Origin: an uncultured archaeon
GTDB lineage: Archaea; Asgardarchaeota; Lokiarchaeia; Sigyniarchaeales; SOKP01
Direction of reading: 5' to 3'
Assembly (NCBI GenBank): GCA_964486045.1
Contig: CAZALK010000025.1
Coordinates: 1 to 41,494 of the forward strand
Length of the DNA: 41,494 nt
Positions 25,873 through 40,338 of this stretch are shown here, piece after piece. Numbering within the stretch: position 1 is the stretch's first letter; every line of letters begins with the position of its first letter. The translations under genes were made by a program, and so were the position numbers. Under the pieces are notes generated by a model that saw only the letters and a program-made list of their open reading frames with translations, did no database searches and was not told the origin of the DNA.

Positions 25873-28800
25873 TTATTTTTTCTTTATAAGTTTTGGTTTA
25901 AAAACAGAGGAGACTTCATTCTTTCCGACTCTAGCAATTCCTATTATTTTTTCAGCAAGTAAAAATAGTGAAGATGATGATTTAGGTAAAAACATGAATA
26001 ATTGGATCGGATTTTGCTCCAACGTTGATTTAATCAATTGATATGCTACTTCTGAATTCTTCTCATCTAAAAACATACCAGCTTCATCAAGCATACATAG
26101 TGGAGAAGGCTTAATCTCTTGTAGAGATAAGATCAAACAAATTGAAATAAGAGAAACCTGGCCCCCACTTAGTGCAGTAAACGATTTTAATTGATCCTTG
26201 GAAGTTGCTGCTTTTATCTCAACACCTAAATCCTCAAAATTTCCTGTTAATTTAATAGAGCAAAATGATTTTACTTGAGAAATTTCAAACTTTTGGTTTA
26301 CTTTTGTTTGAAGGTTGTCAAGTACAATACTAAATTTATCTTTGTAAGTTTTTTCCAATTTGTTTTCTGTTTTTATTGCAGCTTTAATATCTTCTTCTAA
26401 ACTAATTTGATTTTTGTTGATTCCTTTAAGCGATAATATTATTTGATCTTTCTCAACTATTAGCACATCGTCAACGTCTAAATAATTAATTAGATCTTTA
26501 TCTATCCTTGAAATATCTTTATTAATCTCTTCCATAGACCTAATTTTAATAATTTTCTCAGAAATAAGGGGCTTTATTTCAGAATTAATTCTTTCCAAAT
26601 CTTTTCTCTTAATTTCTAAATCTTGATTTAACGTATTCAGCTTAATATTTTCTTGTTCTAAGTTTAGTGTAATTTGCAAAATTTTTCTATCAATTTCGAT
26701 CTTCCTATTTAGATCTTGAATTTTCGCATTTTTCAAATCTAAGATATTCTTTTCAATAATTTCGAGTTTTCTTTCTGTACTTTCTAACGTTCGGTAAGTT
26801 TCAAAGGCAGTTTTATCTGCTTTTTGAAAGATCTCCTTCTTTTTTTCAAATTCTAGTTTATTTATGTTTAACTCATAATGTAAGTTATTTAATTTTTCCT
26901 TAACACTCTTTAGGGTATCTGAACTCTCATCTAATTTTAAATTCCATTTTTTCTTTTCATCATGTAAAGAAGCCAATTCGTTCGGAATTTCATTGACTCT
27001 ATCACTCCATATAAAAAAATCAGGATCCGTTTGATTTTTTAAATCTATTATCTTTATTTCTATTTTTGTAATATCTTCTTTATACACTGAATTATCTTTC
27101 TCTAAAGAATGCTTTTGATTATATAATTGATTTTTCTTAGTAGTAATCCTTTGTTTTTGATTAAAATTATATAAAAGATCGTTAAAAGATTCCTTTTTCT
27201 TGAAAATATCTTTTTGAATATTATCTAGTTTAGATTGTTCAATCCTTAATTCCGATATCTTATCATTTAAAGAAGTTAAATCTGATTCTAATATGCTAGA
27301 TTGTTCTTTTTGAGTTGTAGCACTTAATAAACCCTTTAATCTCTTTAAATATGGTGTTTCGAAAACATATTTATAAGAAATAATTTGTTCACCTGCTAAT
27401 GTTACACATTTTCCCTTAAAATTAAGTTTATTATAAAGTCCTCTTCCCGAATGGTAATCTTTAACAACTAAGCAATTTTTTACCTTCGAGTATATAACTT
27501 TTTTAATATCAATATCATCACTGACGATTTTAATAAGCTCTGCTAAATAACCCAGAACACCTTCAGCAGATACACCAATCAAAGGTTTTATAGATAATTT
27601 TTTAGCAAGATAAATATTACAATAAGCGCCATATTTTTCTTTTAATCTTTTTAACAGAGTTAGAGTATCCCAATCTTCAGCTACAAAGCTATATAATAAT
27701 TTTTCTCCTAACACAGATTCAATAGCATAGCTTAATTTATCATCATATTTAAGGTACTCAATTATAGGACCTTTAACTCTTAATTCACGCCTATTAATCT
27801 CTTCTCTCAGAATTGAAATGCTTGAGGGAAGAATTACTCGACGTTCTCTTAGCGATGTGTTTAAAACTTTTAATTTTTTTATCTTTTTTGATTTCTGAAA
27901 TTCTAATTGTTTTATTTCAGAGTCTATTTCATATATTCTTAAAGATCTTTTTTTAAGTTCTATATCAAGGTCTTGTAATAAGGTTTTAGAAGGATTTTCT
28001 AAAAACCATTTATTTTTTTCAAGTTTATGCTCAATATCCTTAAAGCTTTGAAAGAGTTGGTTGATTTCATTGTTTAGAGAACTGATTGTCTTCTTATTAT
28101 TATGTATATTAGATTGTTTTATTTTTTTATCATTACCAATTTTAGTATACTCATCCAATAAGGTTTTATTTAAAGTAATTTTCTTTATTAATAGGCTTTG
28201 CTCCTTTATTAGGCTCTCAATTTGTAAATTTAATCTTTTAAGTTCCCTGTCTACTATTCCTAGTTCACTATCCAAACGTTCTTTTTGTTTTTCTAAATTT
28301 ACTGAAATTTTTTCAAATTCCCCTACTTTATTTGACAGACCATCTAATTCTTGTTTTGCTAATATCTTTTCATTTTGCCAATTCTGGATTTTTGTAATTA
28401 GATCTTGTCTTTTATAATCCAATTCACCGAGTTTCTTTGTAAGTTTATTGATATTTTGTTCTACAGTTGCAATTTTCTTCTTTAAATTTTCTGCTCCTAA
28501 ATCACATTTTTCCTTTCTTTTTCTAATTCCAAATATAACTTTTTTGAGATTTTCAATTAGGTCATTATTTCTATTTATCTCTTTTTTTAATTTATCTCTA
28601 TTTGCCCATAAGAGCTCATCATTATACTTTTTCCTTATTTTTAGTATCTTTTTTTTTTCTTTCAATCGGTTTAATTTCGGTGTTAGAAGCTCTAAACTTA
28701 TATTTAACGTGTTTTTTCTACTTTTCAATGACTTTAAATCATTATTTAAAGTGTCTACGCTTCTCCTCTGTTGTAGAATTTCATCTCGAAGAGAGCTTAA

Positions 28801-29340
28801 CCCAATTCCTTCTTCAAGAAAAGAGCATAATTCTGTAGGTTTTAAATTCTTTATAGAATCAATTTTACCTTGGCTTACAAAAGCAAATTGGTTATCAGGG
28901 TTAATATTTAAGCCCATAATTTCTTTTTGAACTTCCTGAGCTTGGATCTTTCTAAAATCCTTATCACTCTTATTTTGTATTTTAAAAAAGGGTGATTGTC
29001 CTCGTATCACATATCTCCTGATTTTTATTAAATCTTCTCCATTTTGAATATGAATCTCGACCATTGCATGATTCTGATCATTTCTAATAAAATTAGACCA
29101 CTTCGTATAACGATTATCCCTTTCATTACTTCCTAAAGCAAATTTTATGGCTTGAAAAATAGAAGTTTTTCCACTCCAGTTTGGTCCTACAATAATTACA
29201 AACTTAGCTTCTCCAAAATCAACCTCATCTTTCTGAAATGATAAAAAATTTTCTAAAATAACTTTTTTGATGAAAGTTTTCCGATTTTGTTCTTCTATTA
29301 CTCCTCTTTTTTGGTTCTTATTGTCTGATTGAGAAGCCAA
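25873..29340 (-). CDS. Smc5/6-like SMC ATPase
   Basis: LENFLSF, Walker A GPNWSGKT, NINPDNQFAFVSQ Q-loop, coiled coils, hinge (GPIIEYL...AIESVLG...SFV), LSGGQ, MLDEAGMFLD and a His-less switch QLFMFLPK. Confidence 0.88.
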   Translation of the reverse strand: MASQSDNKNQKRGVIEEQNRKTFIKKVILENFLSFQKDEVDFGEAKFVIIVGPNWSGKTSIFQAIKFALGSNERDNRYTKWSNFIRNDQNHAMVEIHIQNGEDLIKIRRYVIRGQSPFFKIQNKSDKDFRKIQAQEVQKEIMGLNINPDNQFAFVSQGKIDSIKNLKPTELCSFLEEGIGLSSLRDEILQQRRSVDTLNNDLKSLKSRKNTLNISLELLTPKLNRLKEKKKILKIRKKYNDELLWANRDKLKKEINRNNDLIENLKKVIFGIRKRKEKCDLGAENLKKKIATVEQNINKLTKKLGELDYKRQDLITKIQNWQNEKILAKQELDGLSNKVGEFEKISVNLEKQKERLDSELGIVDRELKRLNLQIESLIKEQSLLIKKITLNKTLLDEYTKIGNDKKIKQSNIHNNKKTISSLNNEINQLFQSFKDIEHKLEKNKWFLENPSKTLLQDLDIELKKRSLRIYEIDSEIKQLEFQKSKKIKKLKVLNTSLRERRVILPSSISILREEINRRELRVKGPIIEYLKYDDKLSYAIESVLGEKLLYSFVAEDWDTLTLLKRLKEKYGAYCNIYLAKKLSIKPLIGVSAEGVLGYLAELIKIVSDDIDIKKVIYSKVKNCLVVKDYHSGRGLYNKLNFKGKCVTLAGEQIISYKYVFETPYLKRLKGLLSATTQKEQSSILESDLTSLNDKISELRIEQSKLDNIQKDIFKKKESFNDLLYNFNQKQRITTKKNQLYNQKHSLEKDNSVYKEDITKIEIKIIDLKNQTDPDFFIWSDRVNEIPNELASLHDEKKKWNLKLDESSDTLKSVKEKLNNLHYELNINKLEFEKKKEIFQKADKTAFETYRTLESTERKLEIIEKNILDLKNAKIQDLNRKIEIDRKILQITLNLEQENIKLNTLNQDLEIKRKDLERINSEIKPLISEKIIKIRSMEEINKDISRIDKDLINYLDVDDVLIVEKDQIILSLKGINKNQISLEEDIKAAIKTENKLEKTYKDKFSIVLDNLQTKVNQKFEISQVKSFCSIKLTGNFEDLGVEIKAATSKDQLKSFTALSGGQVSLISICLILSLQEIKPSPLCMLDEAGMFLDEKNSEVAYQLIKSTLEQNPIQLFMFLPKSSSSLFLLAEKIIGIARVGKNEVSSVFKPKLIKKK

Positions 29341-29360
29341 CTATTTATCACCTGTTTGTT

Positions 29361-30626
29361 TTATTTACCAAATGTTTGTTTTATAAGATCAACTCTCTTT
29401 TTTGCTTTCTCTAAATTGATTAAAGCCTTATTTGGTGAATTATTAAGTATAAACGGATATTCTGCTAACAATTTTCTATCATTTTTCTCCAATGGTTCAT
29501 TTTTCTCCAACTTATCAATTATAATAACAATCTCAACGTAATTTTTAAAAGCAGCGTCTTCGTATAATTGATTTAGCATGAAATCTGATAAACGTGAATC
29601 TCGAATATTATTTACATAGTTATCTATTTGTTCTATCCTCTTCACACTCTCCACTTCTTTTTTGGAGATACTGTCAGGATTTAGTAGATTAATTTCACTT
29701 TCCACTGATATTTGTTGATTTTCTGTATAATCAGGAGGAATTGTAGGTATATACTCGCCAAATTCAATCAGATCAAGTAAAATTTGCGTAATTTCATTAC
29801 TTGTTTCATTCAACTCTGAATTTAAAAAATGCTTCAAAATTCCAGCTTTCAATACTTGCTTTATATCTTTTATTTCCCATCTATCAGTACAATCTACTAA
29901 AGCATTGATATCAAAAACAATTTTCGGGTTCCTCTCCAAAAAGTCTCTAAATACTGCTTCCCTTTCAATTCTATTTAATAACTGGAGTTTAATAAATAAA
30001 TCAAACGAATTATACATGTTTGAAGCATTCTCTATGACATCTTGAATATCGTAATTAATCCATATAAGAAGGACATTACTTCCCAAAAAATTGAAATTTT
30101 CTTCATTTTGCTCTGAAAAGTAAATTTCAAGGAGGTTTTTTCCTTTTAATAAAGTTTTGAGATTTAATTGTTGATTAATGATTAATATTCTTTTTTCAAC
30201 ATTTTTTTCAGAATCCATTAGACTTTTGTCGATATCTTCATTTTTCGATTCAAGATCCGTTTCGAAATTGATATTTTCCCCAAAAGCTCTTAAAATTGGA
30301 GTAAAGCTTTTCAAGAACCTTTCTGGTTCTTTCTTTATCTCATTATAGCTAAACTCAATCAATTCTAAATAATAGTTTGTTGAAATTAATTTTAGGAAAT
30401 CTAATATATCAGTTCCTGGATTAACGTTAATTAGAATTGCCCCTTTTGGTGATAGATATTCTTCCAAAGTATTTTCACCATTGTATGTAGCCATAACCTT
30501 AACAAAATTGATTATTTCATTATATTTTTCCCGATAAAAGATTTCTTCTTTATTAACCTCGATTTTTGTTGGTGAAATTACACGAAAATACTTCATAAAT
30601 TCTGGAATCTCGCTTAAATCCTTCAT
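29361..30626 (-). CDS. Degenerate (probably inactive) AAA+ ATPase
   Basis: PKGAILINVNPGT (Walker A without GKT); FDLFIKL...ER.AVF; lid DINALVDCTDRWEIKDIKQV; no Walker B DE. Confidence 0.6.
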   Translation of the reverse strand: MKDLSEIPEFMKYFRVISPTKIEVNKEEIFYREKYNEIINFVKVMATYNGENTLEEYLSPKGAILINVNPGTDILDFLKLISTNYYLELIEFSYNEIKKEPERFLKSFTPILRAFGENINFETDLESKNEDIDKSLMDSEKNVEKRILIINQQLNLKTLLKGKNLLEIYFSEQNEENFNFLGSNVLLIWINYDIQDVIENASNMYNSFDLFIKLQLLNRIEREAVFRDFLERNPKIVFDINALVDCTDRWEIKDIKQVLKAGILKHFLNSELNETSNEITQILLDLIEFGEYIPTIPPDYTENQQISVESEINLLNPDSISKKEVESVKRIEQIDNYVNNIRDSRLSDFMLNQLYEDAAFKNYVEIVIIIDKLEKNEPLEKNDRKLLAEYPFILNNSPNKALINLEKAKKRVDLIKQTFGK

Positions 30627-30962: not shown

Positions 30963-31994
30963 TTAATATGATTTGTTATCCTCATTAATGTAAGGTGCGT
31001 AAGAGCTAATATATTTAACTGCGTCATCTGGGGCAATAATAACAGCCAGTCCATCATGGTTTTTAGCATAATTTAATGCAACGGCTAAAATTGCACCTGT
31101 AGATGGACCAACTAATATTCCATTCTTCCTCGCTAATTCAATTCCAGTTCGATATGCATCATCATCACTCACTTCGAAAATCTCATCAATCACACGTTCA
31201 TCTAATATTGCTGGTATTAAGTCTTTATCTAAGTTAGATATTTTTTTCAGACCAGGTATATTATGTAATGACTCTGAAGGTTCAATCCCCAAAATTTTAA
31301 CCGAAGGTTTTTTTTCTTTTAAGTATTTTCCTATCCCAGTAATGGTACCTCCTGTACCTGTCGCAGCAAAGAAATAATCAATTTCTCCATTTGTTTGCTC
31401 CCATATTTCTGGACCAGTAGATCTATAATGCGCTTGAACATTTAAAAAATTTTCATACTGGTTTGGGTTAAAATATCGTTCTCCTCCTTTACCATTTAAT
31501 ATACCGTTGACTACACCTCTCGCACCTTCGTTGGGGAATGCCGGGCATAAATCATCATCAGCTTCCCATAAAACCTCTACACCAAGCATTTTTAAAAGTA
31601 ACTTTGTTTCTTCAGGTATTCTTGTTGGCACTGCAATTTCAACGGGAATATTTCGAGCGTTAGCTAAGGATGCTAAAGCAATTCCAGTATTGCCAGAAGA
31701 AGGTTCTATGATACTTTGACCATCCTTAAATTGATAATTTTTCAGCATTGATTGTGCAATTCTATCTTTTATTGACCCAAAAGGATTATAACACTCAAGT
31801 TTTATATAAATTGGAAAATTTTTATTTGGATTAATTCTCTCATTTAATTTGACAAGAGGAGTGGGATTTTCAATATTTGAAATTAAATCTTCTATACTTT
31901 CATAAACCCTTAATTTGTTATTTACCCCATTTTTTCCGTTTCTATTATTATACGATTGTGCTTTCATAATTTCATCCTTTATTTTAGTGTTCAT
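30963..31994 (-). CDS. cysK: PLP-dependent cysteine synthase family (CysK/CysM)
   Basis: TPLV, KLECYNPFGSIKDR (PLP Lys), SSGNTG, GTGGT and GPSTGA. Confidence 0.88.
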   Translation of the reverse strand: MNTKIKDEIMKAQSYNNRNGKNGVNNKLRVYESIEDLISNIENPTPLVKLNERINPNKNFPIYIKLECYNPFGSIKDRIAQSMLKNYQFKDGQSIIEPSSGNTGIALASLANARNIPVEIAVPTRIPEETKLLLKMLGVEVLWEADDDLCPAFPNEGARGVVNGILNGKGGERYFNPNQYENFLNVQAHYRSTGPEIWEQTNGEIDYFFAATGTGGTITGIGKYLKEKKPSVKILGIEPSESLHNIPGLKKISNLDKDLIPAILDERVIDEIFEVSDDDAYRTGIELARKNGILVGPSTGAILAVALNYAKNHDGLAVIIAPDDAVKYISSYAPYINEDNKSY

Positions 31995-32156
31995 TTAAAA
32001 AATTCTACAATTTTAACCAATCAAGCGTATAATGAAAGCTAAAAAATTGATGGTTAGTTGAGAATTAATAAACTGTTGTTTAGCAACAACAACACATGCA
32101 ACAACAAGTAGAGGTAGAAGTTCTTACCTTGTGCTCATAATTAATTCTCATCAACT
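31995..32156 (-). promoter_or_regulatory. Candidate cysteine-responsive attenuator leader
   Basis: 11-bp IR 32059-32069/32140-32150; ACAACA after the stop complements the Cys codons; a further imperfect stem ~32015-32024/32047-32056; U6 tracts at 32041-32046 and just before the cysK ATG. Confidence 0.6.
32080..32151 (-). CDS. Polycysteine leader peptide MRINYEHKVRTSTSTCCCMCCCC
   Basis: ATG AGA ATT...ACT TGT TGT TGC ATG TGT TGT TGT TGC TAA; same strand as cysteine synthase, ending 85 nt before its start. Confidence 0.8.
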   Translation of the reverse strand: MRINYEHKVRTSTSTCCCMCCCC

Positions 32157-32224
32157 TATATATGAATTGTACATTTTAAAATGTTGGGGTTATTATGTTA
32201 AAACTGCATTTCTGATAATACAAA

Positions 32225-32249
32225 TTTGTATACCAAAAAAGTATACAAA
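32225..32249. promoter_or_regulatory. Operator-like inverted repeat TTTGTATAC-N7-GTATACAAA
   Basis: Perfect 9-bp arms ~75-100 bp upstream of the leader ATG. Confidence 0.45.
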
Positions 32250-32514
32250 ATTTACAATTTAACAAATACATCAACTAACCTACATTTAACTTAATTTGCG
32301 ATAGAGAGCTAATAATGCTATAAACTTTTAAAGGATCTTCAAATACGGTAATGAGAGAAATGTTCCTAAACCGGAATTCATCTCGAATGAGATCAAAAAA
32401 CACTTGCTCCAACTGAACATTCATAAGATAATTACTGTCCCCAAACACTTCTTCAATCTGCTCCTAAATAGCATGTAGAAGAAGAAAAAATAAAAAAAAG
32501 TTTTAAAATTGAAT

Positions 32515-32763
32515 CTATTTCGCTTCGTGAGGCATGCAAAAATACCCTTTTTCAAGCTCGTATTTTGGAAATAAACCACAACCGAAACAACTACACCCTT
32601 TGTTTTCTATTTGGTCTTGTGGTTTCTGTGATTTTCCCCTTGCACAAAATAGGGCATGGGGTTCAAATTCATTGAGCTTATTTGGTTTAAATGAGGGACA
32701 CGGCCCACAAAACTTCCTACACACATCCATTGATGCTTCATCATCTGGAACTGGTATTGGCAT
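32515..32763 (-). CDS. Small Cys-rich metal-binding protein (DUF2769-like)
   Basis: C...CGPCPSF...LFCARGKS...GCSCFGC...YFC pattern. Confidence 0.7.
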   Translation of the reverse strand: MPIPVPDDEASMDVCRKFCGPCPSFKPNKLNEFEPHALFCARGKSQKPQDQIENKGCSCFGCGLFPKYELEKGYFCMPHEAK

Positions 32764-38505: not shown

Positions 38506-38564
38506 GACAAGAATTACCAAATCTTCTTTAACTTATTAAATTTTAATTTATTTATTATTTTGGG

Positions 38565-38921
38565 GTGATTAATAAAATTAAGAACATTAAACTAACAATT
38601 TTTGCACCAGATCCAGAAAAAAAGTTGTCGAAAGGGCTTGAATACAATCCAAGTATTAATGATAGCGGAACTGTAGTTGACACACTCAGCGCCATAGATA
38701 GAATAGTTTATGCCGACTCTAAAAAATCAATATTTCCAATTTATAAAGGTTTGATACACAGTTATCTACAATTGATCTGGGATAGTGAAGAGAACAAGAT
38801 TTATGATGACTGTGCTGTAAATGCATATGGTCCAAACAGAGAATTTATACCACTACAGGAAGATATTAATTTTAATCTTTATCCTGAAAGTGAAATAACA
38901 ATTGTTGTTCATGCTGACTGA
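38565..38921 (+). CDS. Hypothetical protein, possibly beta-grasp (MoaD/Ubl-like)
   Basis: KLTIF...GTVVDTLSAID...NL.P.SEITIV pattern; ends HAD-TGA-TGA. Confidence 0.55.
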   Translation: MINKIKNIKLTIFAPDPEKKLSKGLEYNPSINDSGTVVDTLSAIDRIVYADSKKSIFPIYKGLIHSYLQLIWDSEENKIYDDCAVNAYGPNREFIPLQEDINFNLYPESEITIVVHAD

Positions 38922-38933
38922 TGAGCTGATGTT

Positions 38934-39306
38934 ATGAAAGAACGATTAGATTTTGGATCATTTAAAAAAACCTTAATGAAAAATTATGGAAAAGATCAAG
39001 AACCTTTTGTCCACTATTTTACTATTAAAAGAACGGGTTAAATTTAAGAATGATGTCTTTCAATAAACGTTAGTGAAAGATTAACTGTAGGAATGCTTCC
39101 TATTCCCTTCTAATTTTGTTAAGATATCGGAATAATTTTTGCCTTGAACATTAATTTTTCGTTAATTTTGTTAGTTTTATTCTTAGTGGTTTTCGGTTTG
39201 TTAATATTCAGATTCTTTGTGATATTTCCCAAAATAGCGTACCTTCATTGTAGTGCTAAATTTACTTGCCCTATCGGAGAAAAAATAGGAGTACGGGATA
39301 AGTAAA
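38934..39306 (+). pseudogene. Decayed membrane-protein gene
   Basis: MKERLDFGSFKK... with several stops, a hydrophobic segment and a C-terminal FPKIAYLHCSAKFTCPIGEKIG. Confidence 0.4.
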
Positions 39307-39369
39307 TAAAGTATTAAATCTTATTTCTCTTCACATCATTTAACCTAATATTTAAACTTTAGAATCGAA

Positions 39370-40338
39370 ATGGACATATTCACTCATATAATAATGGGAA
39401 CTTTATCATGTTTCTTACTACTTGGTAAAATAAGTCCTGAAGCAATAATTCTCCTTTGGATTATGGCCATTTTTCCAGATGGAGATATATTTGTGGAACC
39501 ATTTACTAAAAAACGAAACCTATACTTTTTGTCACATAAAGCCGCATCTCATTCATACATTATTGGGATAATTATAACTGCCATTATCAGTGTGTTTATC
39601 TCATTTCTTCGAGGTGTCCAATTCTTTGAGATCTGGATTGCTGGAACTATTGGATTTAGTATCCATGTTTCATTAGATTTCTTTGCTGCTTCAAAAGTCC
39701 CCCTTTTTTATCCATTTTCTAAAAAAGAGTTTAGAGTCATAGCTGATAGAGCAATAAATCCATTACTAGCTTTATTTTCTGCAATTAACCTCCTAGTTTT
39801 GCTTAGTTATTATGTGATTAGCCCATATTATCATGTTTTTATGGCGTTGACTTCATTTTATTTAAATGTCTATTTTGTCTATTTTGGAACCCGGTTGACA
39901 TTAAGACTAATAATACAATTGTTATTACCAAAAGGATCGCATTATATCCCTGATTTCATACCTTTTTTTTATCTTATTTATTCAAGAAATTCAACAGAAG
40001 GGAGTATTAAATTTAATTTGTATCGGAAATTTGCATTTTCCTCAAAAAGAAAGATGCTTTTGAATCAAACCTTCTCAAAGAATTCAGAAATAACTACCTA
40101 CATTGAACAAACAATCCAAATTAGTCAAGAATATAGGTTTTTCCATAAATGGAATTCAATGATACCATTTATCCGTGAAAATGAGCAAAACATTAATGTT
40201 GTTCTAATCTTGGCTGAAAGTTATTCAAGAATGAGATCGTATTTTCTCTCCGTCGTTATAGATAAACAAACAAAAAAAATTCTTTCAAGAGAAGACGGAT
40301 TTGGATCTTTTCACTACTGGAAAAGCATAGAATTTTAA
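39370..40338 (+). CDS. Membrane-bound metal-dependent hydrolase (YdjM-like)
   Basis: MDIFTH, PDGD, HKAASHS, HVSLD and LFYPFS motifs. Confidence 0.85.
   Translation: MDIFTHIIMGTLSCFLLLGKISPEAIILLWIMAIFPDGDIFVEPFTKKRNLYFLSHKAASHSYIIGIIITAIISVFISFLRGVQFFEIWIAGTIGFSIHVSLDFFAASKVPLFYPFSKKEFRVIADRAINPLLALFSAINLLVLLSYYVISPYYHVFMALTSFYLNVYFVYFGTRLTLRLIIQLLLPKGSHYIPDFIPFFYLIYSRNSTEGSIKFNLYRKFAFSSKRKMLLNQTFSKNSEITTYIEQTIQISQEYRFFHKWNSMIPFIRENEQNINVVLILAESYSRMRSYFLSVVIDKQTKKILSREDGFGSFHYWKSIEF

Follow-up and report, generated by a model that had tools for sequence, protein, structure and literature searches.

A conserved poly-cysteine leader ORF upstream of a cysK-family gene in Asgard archaea, a candidate cysteine-responsive attenuator

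Leader ORF, cysK-family gene and their surroundings

The window analyzed here is the whole stretch of 41,494 nucleotides; it has a G+C content of about 29% and belongs to a genome of 5.18 Mb in 45 contigs. An earlier note on this DNA had called the host Asgard-like, and this agrees with the element-bearing relatives, which are deposited as Promethearchaeota or Promethearchaeia archaeon MAGs. Read from 5' to 3' on the minus strand, the locus consists of a TATA-like box, 22 nt, a short open reading frame (sORF), a spacer of 112 nt, the Shine-Dalgarno (SD)-like motif AGGATGA and the ATG of a cysK-family gene (Table 1). The 23-amino-acid poly-Cys ORF described in the earlier note could be read directly from the sequence; Cys occupies seven of its final eight codons and Met the remaining one.

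A scan of both strands of the 5.18 Mb genome for ATG-initiated sORFs of 8 to 50 codons identified nine with at least 4 Cys in the last 8 codons, and 7 Cys were found only in the sORF at this locus. Among the other eight candidates, seven lie inside long ORFs, out of frame, and one is without a true Cys run; the window sORF is the sole intergenic poly-Cys sORF in its own genome. A second poly-Cys frame, MRFNNKHFFCCCCCC (C6:77670, contig 6), was rejected as an artefact, being out of frame within a short-chain dehydrogenase gene. Runs of Trp, His or Met codons were not found in intergenic sORFs upstream of genes in this genome (for other residues, the analysis covered counts only). With one such locus, and without other amino-acid-run leaders in Trp, His and Met contexts, attenuation does not appear to be a general habit of this organism.

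The protein encoded downstream of the sORF carries a PALP domain (Pfam E 1e-62, 212.7 bits). Its best NCBIfam models are cysKM, cysK and cysM, all below cut-off (265 vs 344 for cysKM and 245 vs 351 for cysK), and because these scores lie under the equivalog cut-offs, the enzyme is called cysK-family rather than CysK. Its earlier identification as a cysteine synthase therefore holds at the level of a cysK/cysM-family PLP enzyme but not at that of the cysK and cysM equivalogs. A cysE gene that scores above its NCBIfam cut-off is found in the same genome, which makes an O-acetylserine route plausible. Another contig of this genome, C2, carries two further cysK-family genes and cysE within 20 kb (38559-39461, 42975-43973, 56859-57338), none of them with a poly-Cys leader. 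The cysK copy in the window looks like an extra, separately regulated paralogue.

The SD-preceded ATG (31967 here) is kept in every relative, and motifs such as GGGUGAU, GGGAGGU and AGGGAUG stand in the same place as the SD-like motif of the window. The ATG at 31994 is not conserved, and in the orthologue of one relative (G013) the frame from the earlier ATG meets an in-frame stop. The sORF-to-cysK distance of 85 nt reported previously is correct for the ATG at 31994, whereas the distance to the conserved, SD-preceded ATG is 112 nt.

In the MRIN-type relatives that were inspected upstream, TTTTAAA(T/A) is found 21-22 nt before the sORF ATG with no SD preceding it, and three other types have different TATA-like boxes 21-23 nt before the ATG. 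Position statistics for 1475 genes of the same genome with unambiguous ATG starts showed that TATA-like hexamers peak at -31..-29, which is the position of the sORF box, and SD-like pentamers at -15..-11, which is the position of the cysK SD. A TATA-like box at leaderless spacing, together with the lack of an SD, makes a leaderless start of the sORF likely, and the conserved cysK SD implies that the transcript must begin further upstream. From these sequence features, we infer a leaderless sORF and an SD-led cysK on the same RNA. The AGAAUUUU region, 26-28 nt before the cysK ATG, resembles a BRE/TATA promoter, and the AGAAUUUU(AA) block resembles the promoter-like GAAUAUUUUAAA of the sORF; judged by this resemblance, cysK could have a second promoter of its own. 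Such a promoter would fire about 4 nt before the cysK ATG and would leave the conserved SD untranscribed.

Beyond cysK, positions 25873-30626 of the window (minus strand) encode two proteins, one an SMC-family ATPase (Pfam SMC_N, hinge) and the other, of 421 aa, with no match in Pfam or NCBIfam. The gap of 336 nt between cysK and these genes makes cysK appear monocistronic behind its leader. On the other side, the leader is preceded in this genome (G000) by a small, Cys-rich DUF2769 gene (window 32515-32763, minus strand). By-eye alignment revealed look-alikes of this gene at L036:1807-2061, L037:1145-1399, L038:1138-1398 and L039:1126-1260, and none in G062 or G072; in G002, the DUF2769-like frame is interrupted by a TAA at the position of a Gln in the others. 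The gap of about 360 nt between DUF2769 and the sORF promoter is about 250 nt longer in G000 than in its relatives and contains UUUGUAUAC ... GUAUACAAA, a palindrome of 9 bp that is perfect and has a U6G loop (window 32222-32252, minus strand); it may be the terminator of the upstream gene.

Table 1. Features of the poly-Cys leader and the cysK-family gene, in 5' to 3' order (positions are those of the window)
Feature	Position	Strand	Remarks
TATA-like box TTTTAAAA	32181..32174	minus	22 nt upstream of sORF ATG; putative promoter of leaderless transcript
Poly-Cys leader sORF	32151..32080	minus	23 codons + TAA; encodes MRINYEHKVRTSTSTCCCMCCCC
P1 5' strand, segment 1 UGAGAAUUAAU	32150..32140	minus	holds start-codon U and G; nearly invariant
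P2 hairpin inside sORF, GGUA...UACC	32128..32113	minus	GGUAAG/CUUACC in most relatives
Cys-codon tract TGT TGT TGC ATG TGT TGT TGT TGC	32106..32083	minus	
P3 3' strand ACAACAG	32079..32073	minus	pairs with last Cys codons (UGUUGU), stop codon in loop
P1 3' strand, segment 2 AUUAAUUCUCA	32069..32059	minus	invariant in 21 MRIN-type sequences
P4 hairpin UAACCAUCAA (32056..32047) / UUGAUUGGUUA (32024..32014)	32056..32014	minus	one bulge; variable loop holds U6 32046..32041
Segment 4, AGAAUU then U6	32006..31997	minus	GAAUU complementary to segment 2, in 20/21 aligned sequences (one: one-column gap)
SD-like AGGAUGA before likely cysK start	31978..31972	minus	similar motifs at same place in relatives
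cysK/cysM-family PLP enzyme, 334 aa	30963..31967	minus	conserved start; ORF-track start 31994, 27 nt earlier

Conservation of the leader and evolution of its peptide

All three of the closest orthologues in the genus (78-86% identity) have an MRIN...poly-Cys sORF at the same place. A covariance model built on the leader (R1) gave one match in the own genome; it also matched 7 of the 54 genomes that represent the genus and two further genera, one strongly (G110) and one weakly (G072, 32 bits). The weak match represents a diverged leader that encodes MRFRQQNQPNSYFCNCCRDCCC ahead of a 70%-identical orthologue. The model found no match in five single-contig genomes (G006, G023, G032, G033 and G038), and a cultured carrier of the leader may be lacking. 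Overall, the leader was seen in nine genomes of three GTDB genera, all in one Promethearchaeia family, and in about 20 metagenome contigs, with marine sediment among the sources. The public sequencing runs listed as containing this DNA were all DNA runs from marine sediment metagenomes, one of them probably the source sample, and no RNA run was among them. On contig C34 of G110 (L042), which is assigned to another GTDB genus, the leader and cysK are about as similar to those of G000 as the copies within the genus are (R1 169 bits; protein 79% identical), which could reflect transfer, binning or taxonomy.

Protein searches showed that the leader-bearing cysK clade is patchy, as it was found in 9 of the family's 135 genomes; the sORF accompanies each close orthologue (in G019, the cysK gene is cut by the contig end). 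No sORF was found upstream of the two most divergent copies in the family (64-67% identity; the paralogue on contig 2 of G000 and the copy in G022), nor in other Asgard families, where a gene for a cysH-like reductase stands immediately before the orthologue (57-61% identity). The cysH-like gene that adjoins these distant orthologues upstream has a PAPS/APS-reductase-type YRSLGCAPC motif, recognized by eye, which fits sulfur assimilation. The same arrangement, with the orthologue straight after the cysH-like gene and without an sORF, was seen in higher-GC relatives (L063, L064, L067) and in many metagenome loci (e.g., L124, L126, L128).

Metagenome contigs were scanned with the enzyme N-terminus alone as the query, and the scan was hence blind to the leader. 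Upstream Cys content among the 80 loci returned was bimodal: 22 loci had 4-8 Cys per 9 codons, and the rest had no more than 3, except for one out-of-frame artefact. In a quick maximum-likelihood tree of 87 homologues, with SH-aLRT support only, the MRIN and MRFR types fall together in a single clade (27 rows). The sORF is present in all 26 rows of this clade that have upstream sequence, the 27th contig beginning inside the gene, and these 26 members encode 22 distinct peptides. Between 4 and 8 Cys codons were found in all 24 distinct relatives, and the distance from the sORF stop to the cysK start is 102-115 nt throughout the main clade. The gene preceding the sORF, by comparison, can be DUF2769, an ArsR-like regulator (G062) or a membrane protein (G072). 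As the upstream neighbor varies while the distance to cysK stays fixed, the sORF travels with cysK. This distance and the conserved cysK SD lend indirect support to a shared transcript. The earlier note had made its proposal depend on a conserved poly-Cys sORF upstream of orthologues, and such an sORF is present at every close orthologue with upstream sequence.

Further sORFs, MKYGEDSRKDSCFLCSCSCMCCC (L100, MKYG type) and MATNKLSNSCTCCCTYCC (L134 and L136, MATN type), were found before more distant cysK homologues elsewhere in the tree and are unrelated to the MRIN type. In these as well, the Cys run is read in the frame of the ATG and is directly followed by the stop, past which lie a complement and, further downstream, a cysK gene. 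The ATG, the frame, the Cys run and the adjoining stop are kept across four sequence-unrelated types. L134 originates from groundwater, and L134 and L136 may be bacterial. A Cys-rich frame that may start with TTG, in L089 (GC 43%), was considered doubtful and not included. In L100, the distant cysK homologue behind the MKYG-type sORF (1480-2682, 400 aa) has a C-terminal TusA sulfurtransferase domain, and the Asgard g79 orthologues, with open frames of 404-418 aa, may be TusA-fused likewise. L100 also has a second sORF of 22 codons (1407-1475; MLKLNDYQMINPDDKFKDFEEK) with its own strong SD between the poly-Cys sORF and cysK; the cysK SD lies within it, and 3 nt separate its stop from the ATG of cysK, a layout that suggests translational coupling to cysK in the MKYG type.

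Among the 22 peptides, only the Cys run is constant, and even here the length of the run (4-8) and its interruptions vary, as in CCCMCCCC, NCCIFGCC, CCCCCCR and CNCCRDCCC. Synonymous TGT/TGC exchanges were observed at the Cys codons. Residues 5-14 vary without constraint, in part as a result of compensatory changes in the predicted helix P2, which overlaps residues 8-14 and in which G-C to A-U and other double changes preserve pairing and alter amino acids; the MRIN at the start, which is conserved, falls on the 5' strand of P1. A Cys run that is kept while other residues are altered by helix-compensating changes points to a leader peptide, of which the codons matter and the product does not.

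This non-conserved evolution of the peptide argues against a functional, Cys-rich micropeptide. Such a metal- or sulfur-binding, metallothionein-like product would act in trans and would be transcribed alone or with cysK, with cysK being expressed from its own AGAAUUUU promoter. The micropeptide would account for an ORF that stays open in all relatives, for the promoter-like block before the cysK ATG and its similarity to the promoter of the sORF, and for Cys-rich neighbors (DUF2769) in several genomes. By contrast, it is at odds with the variation in Cys number and spacing, with a non-Cys part that differs between types and changes by RNA-compensatory substitutions, with an sORF that goes with cysK and not with DUF2769 and with a conserved SD that transcription from the AGAAUUUU promoter would not include. 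Taken together, we consider a micropeptide unlikely.

Predicted RNA structure and regulatory output

Four helices (P1-P4) were predicted with RNAalifold and a covariance model, and the three pairings listed in the earlier note, namely segment 1 with segment 2, the Cys codons with ACAACA and UAACCAUCAA with UUGAUUGGUUA, are all present in the sequence. P1 comprises 11 bp and closes the whole sORF, with 97% of cells paired in 21 sequences and a duplex energy in relatives of -10.6 to -13.2 kcal/mol versus a shuffled mean of about -4. In G072, this helix is reduced to AUGAGA/UCUCAU, and in the MKYG and MATN types it did not reach significance. P2, inside the sORF, has compensatory changes at three pairs, e.g., from G-C to A-U in three sequences. 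P3 covaries both within the MRIN type (UGUUGU/ACAACA and UGUCGU/ACGACA) and between types (CUGCUGU/ACAGCAG-like and UGUGUU/AACACA). The core of P4 is UAACCA/UGGUUA, and the stem is kept with other sequence in the G072 type (CCAUCAU/AUGGUGG); its loop is not conserved. In the alignment of 22 sequences, which had been fitted to the model, pairing holds for 95% of cells, the covariation score is above all 500 shuffles and double changes occur in 10 cells versus 3.1 +/- 1.5 in shuffles. Covarying stems, for which the earlier note had proposed to look, are represented by the compensatory changes in P2 and P3; P1 is invariant.

In several types, the first Cys cluster pairs with an upstream ACAAC-like element, and with both Cys clusters in predicted helices, all Cys codons would be helical in free RNA. 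Two further candidate hairpins, P5 (AAAAUU/AAUUUU, 91% paired) and P6 (AAUUUUA/UAAAAUU, 80%), were rejected, being all A-U and indistinguishable from the AT-rich background.

A structured non-coding leader RNA, which could be riboswitch-like, protein-binding or an sRNA, would explain part of this pattern. Under this alternative, the frame would be incidental and the UGU repeats would be kept only for pairing with ACAAC. In its favor, no Cys-codon cluster falls outside the predicted helices, compensatory changes were seen in P2 and P3, the conserved residues MRIN and NQN fall on helix strands, and the indels in the tract come in units of 3, as slippage of a TGT repeat would give. A helix, however, needs just 5-8 nt, yet 4-8 Cys codons are retained, and an incidental frame does not account for the ATG, Cys run and adjoining stop that recur in four unrelated types. 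A search of Rfam gave 0 matches at the gathering threshold, with chance-level ones up to E 5 and none on the leader. A non-coding RNA would also leave the link between Cys codons and a cysteine-synthase gene unexplained, and it is judged to be improbable.

An alternative pairing is available to segment 2. Its AAUUCU, within AUUAAUUCUC, can pair with the AGAAUU at 32006-32001, with 98% of cells paired. For the free RNA, most sequences had minimum free energy (MFE) folds in which segment 2 is paired with the 5' end; when the 5' end and the Cys region were masked, mimicking a stalled and a queued ribosome, it paired with AGAAUU in 16 of 21 MFE folds. Neither P1 nor the alternative pairing varies, and covariation is therefore neither evidence for them nor a test of them. 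The segment-2 switch, as modeled from these invariant A/U-rich segments, is accordingly presented here as a hypothesis.

How the predicted refolding would act on cysK was addressed at the levels of termination and translation initiation. U6 tracts are found at 32046..32041 and 32002..31997 of the window. The first tract, in the poorly conserved P4 loop, is T6 in G000, G013, L070 and G062, T5 in L069 and shorter or absent in the majority of the others. For the second tract, the U run ranges from 2 to 6 among the relatives, with 2-4 T in most, and the hairpin adjacent to it consists of A-U pairs throughout (91% paired). Termination at oligo-U, whether at 32041-32046 or at the second U6, as suggested in the earlier note, thus finds no counterpart in the relatives, in which neither tract is conserved. 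A conserved terminator before cysK, either as a hairpin with a U run or as an archaeal oligo-U tract, was not found among the relatives. Folds constrained by a ribosome placed at the first or last Cys codon or at the stop, or by a disome, showed no consistent change in the accessibility of the cysK SD and AUG. SD sequestration according to the mycobacterial model was rejected, as the Cys tract pairs with the ACAACAG after its own stop and not with the cysK SD.

A probable cysteine-sensing leader and comparison with known systems

The sORF probably represents a Cys-sensing leader peptide that controls the cysteine-synthase-family gene in cis. This reading of the sequence draws on the uniqueness of the sORF in its genome, its linkage to cysK, its leader-like evolution, the leaderless-type spacing of its promoter, the cysK SD, the predicted structure, the mycobacterial precedent and the presence of cysE; translation of the sORF, its co-transcription with cysK and the direction of the response are inferred. 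A precursor or carrier peptide (RiPP-like) that is modified by the adjacent PLP enzyme, or delivers sulfur to it, would fit a small Cys-rich peptide beside an enzyme gene and the TusA sulfurtransferase domain fused to one distant homologue, but it is very improbable given a peptide without a conserved recognition leader, the absence of maturation or export genes nearby and a 112-nt structured spacer that is atypical of a precursor-enzyme operon.

For a Cys-sensing leader, transcription would begin at or next to the sORF AUG, and the leaderless mRNA would run through the 112-nt spacer into the SD-led cysK. A ribosome loading at the 5' AUG would have to decode 4-8 Cys codons, which would be base-paired in free RNA, the last ones in a hairpin with the bases just past the stop. 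When charged tRNA-Cys is scarce, the ribosome would stall at the Cys codons and hold these helices open, and the stalled ribosome together with a queued second one would keep the 5' segment GAGAAUUAAU from pairing with AUUAAUUCUC. The freed AUUAAUUCUC could then pair with the conserved downstream AGAAUU, the spacer would refold and cysK expression would rise, through an effect on transcription termination, translation or RNA stability. When Cys is plentiful, the ribosome would depart and the 5' end would close on AUUAAUUCUC, with the start codon being hidden too.

The output could differ from that of either bacterial design. In such an Asgard leader read by the ribosome, the start codon would be closed by a helix once the sORF is transcribed, only a pioneer ribosome trailing the polymerase would read the Cys codons, and stalling would pick between two pairings of one invariant segment. 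We offer this version of the mechanism tentatively, as a possibility that is rather doubtful in its present form.

Ribosome-mediated attenuation is a textbook bacterial mechanism that needs translation close behind transcription, and archaea couple transcription and translation. The literature that was searched in full text did not contain an archaeal amino-acid attenuator, in agreement with the remark in the earlier note that no well-characterized leader-peptide attenuator is known from archaea; upstream ORFs (uORFs) appeared there only as ribosome-profiling signals. If the proposed function is correct, the element would be the first published amino-acid attenuator in Archaea. As a conserved, gene-linked element whose start codon, Cys codons, SD and three short complementary segments can be mutated, it offers a concrete test of ribosome-based amino-acid sensing in (Asgard) archaea. 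The leader also marks this cysK paralogue as a putative inducible cysteine-synthase copy in these sediment archaea.

Archaeal uORFs are known from ribosome profiling, for example in Methanosarcina mazei (PMC11456600). The leader described here resembles them as a short ORF in the 5' region of a gene; the reports on those uORFs give no amino-acid-specific codon run and no demonstrated sensing.

The leaderless poly-Cys sORFs of mycobacteria (Ms5788A type, "Cys ribulon"; Canestrari et al.) have been shown experimentally to be Cys-responsive attenuators, in which stalled ribosomes free an SD that is otherwise hidden by the Cys tract (10.1101/834739). The Asgard leader shares with these sORFs an ORF with which the transcript begins (predicted for the Asgard leader), a 3'-terminal Cys run, a structured spacer about 100 nt long, a downstream gene of Cys metabolism and Cys codons that are predicted to be paired in free RNA. 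It differs from them in its archaeal domain, its TATA-type promoter, the lack of sequence similarity and a Cys tract that pairs just past its own stop and not with a downstream SD, with no SD sequestration predicted. Furthermore, there is one locus per genome in the Asgard host versus six in the mycobacterial system.

The trpL, hisL, leuL and thrL attenuators of Proteobacteria have in common with the Asgard element a leader ORF in which codons specifying the pathway's amino acid are enriched. As in trp-type attenuators, AUUAAUUCUC is predicted to be able to pair with either of two segments, which is comparable to the 1:2 versus 2:3 logic of these systems. In contrast to the classical attenuators, the Asgard leader has no conserved G+C-rich terminator hairpin with a U run, its regulatory codons are located between the competing segments and not inside segment 1, and its start codon lies in the closing helix. 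The element probably works like the mycobacterial and classical attenuators, yet it is a member of neither group.
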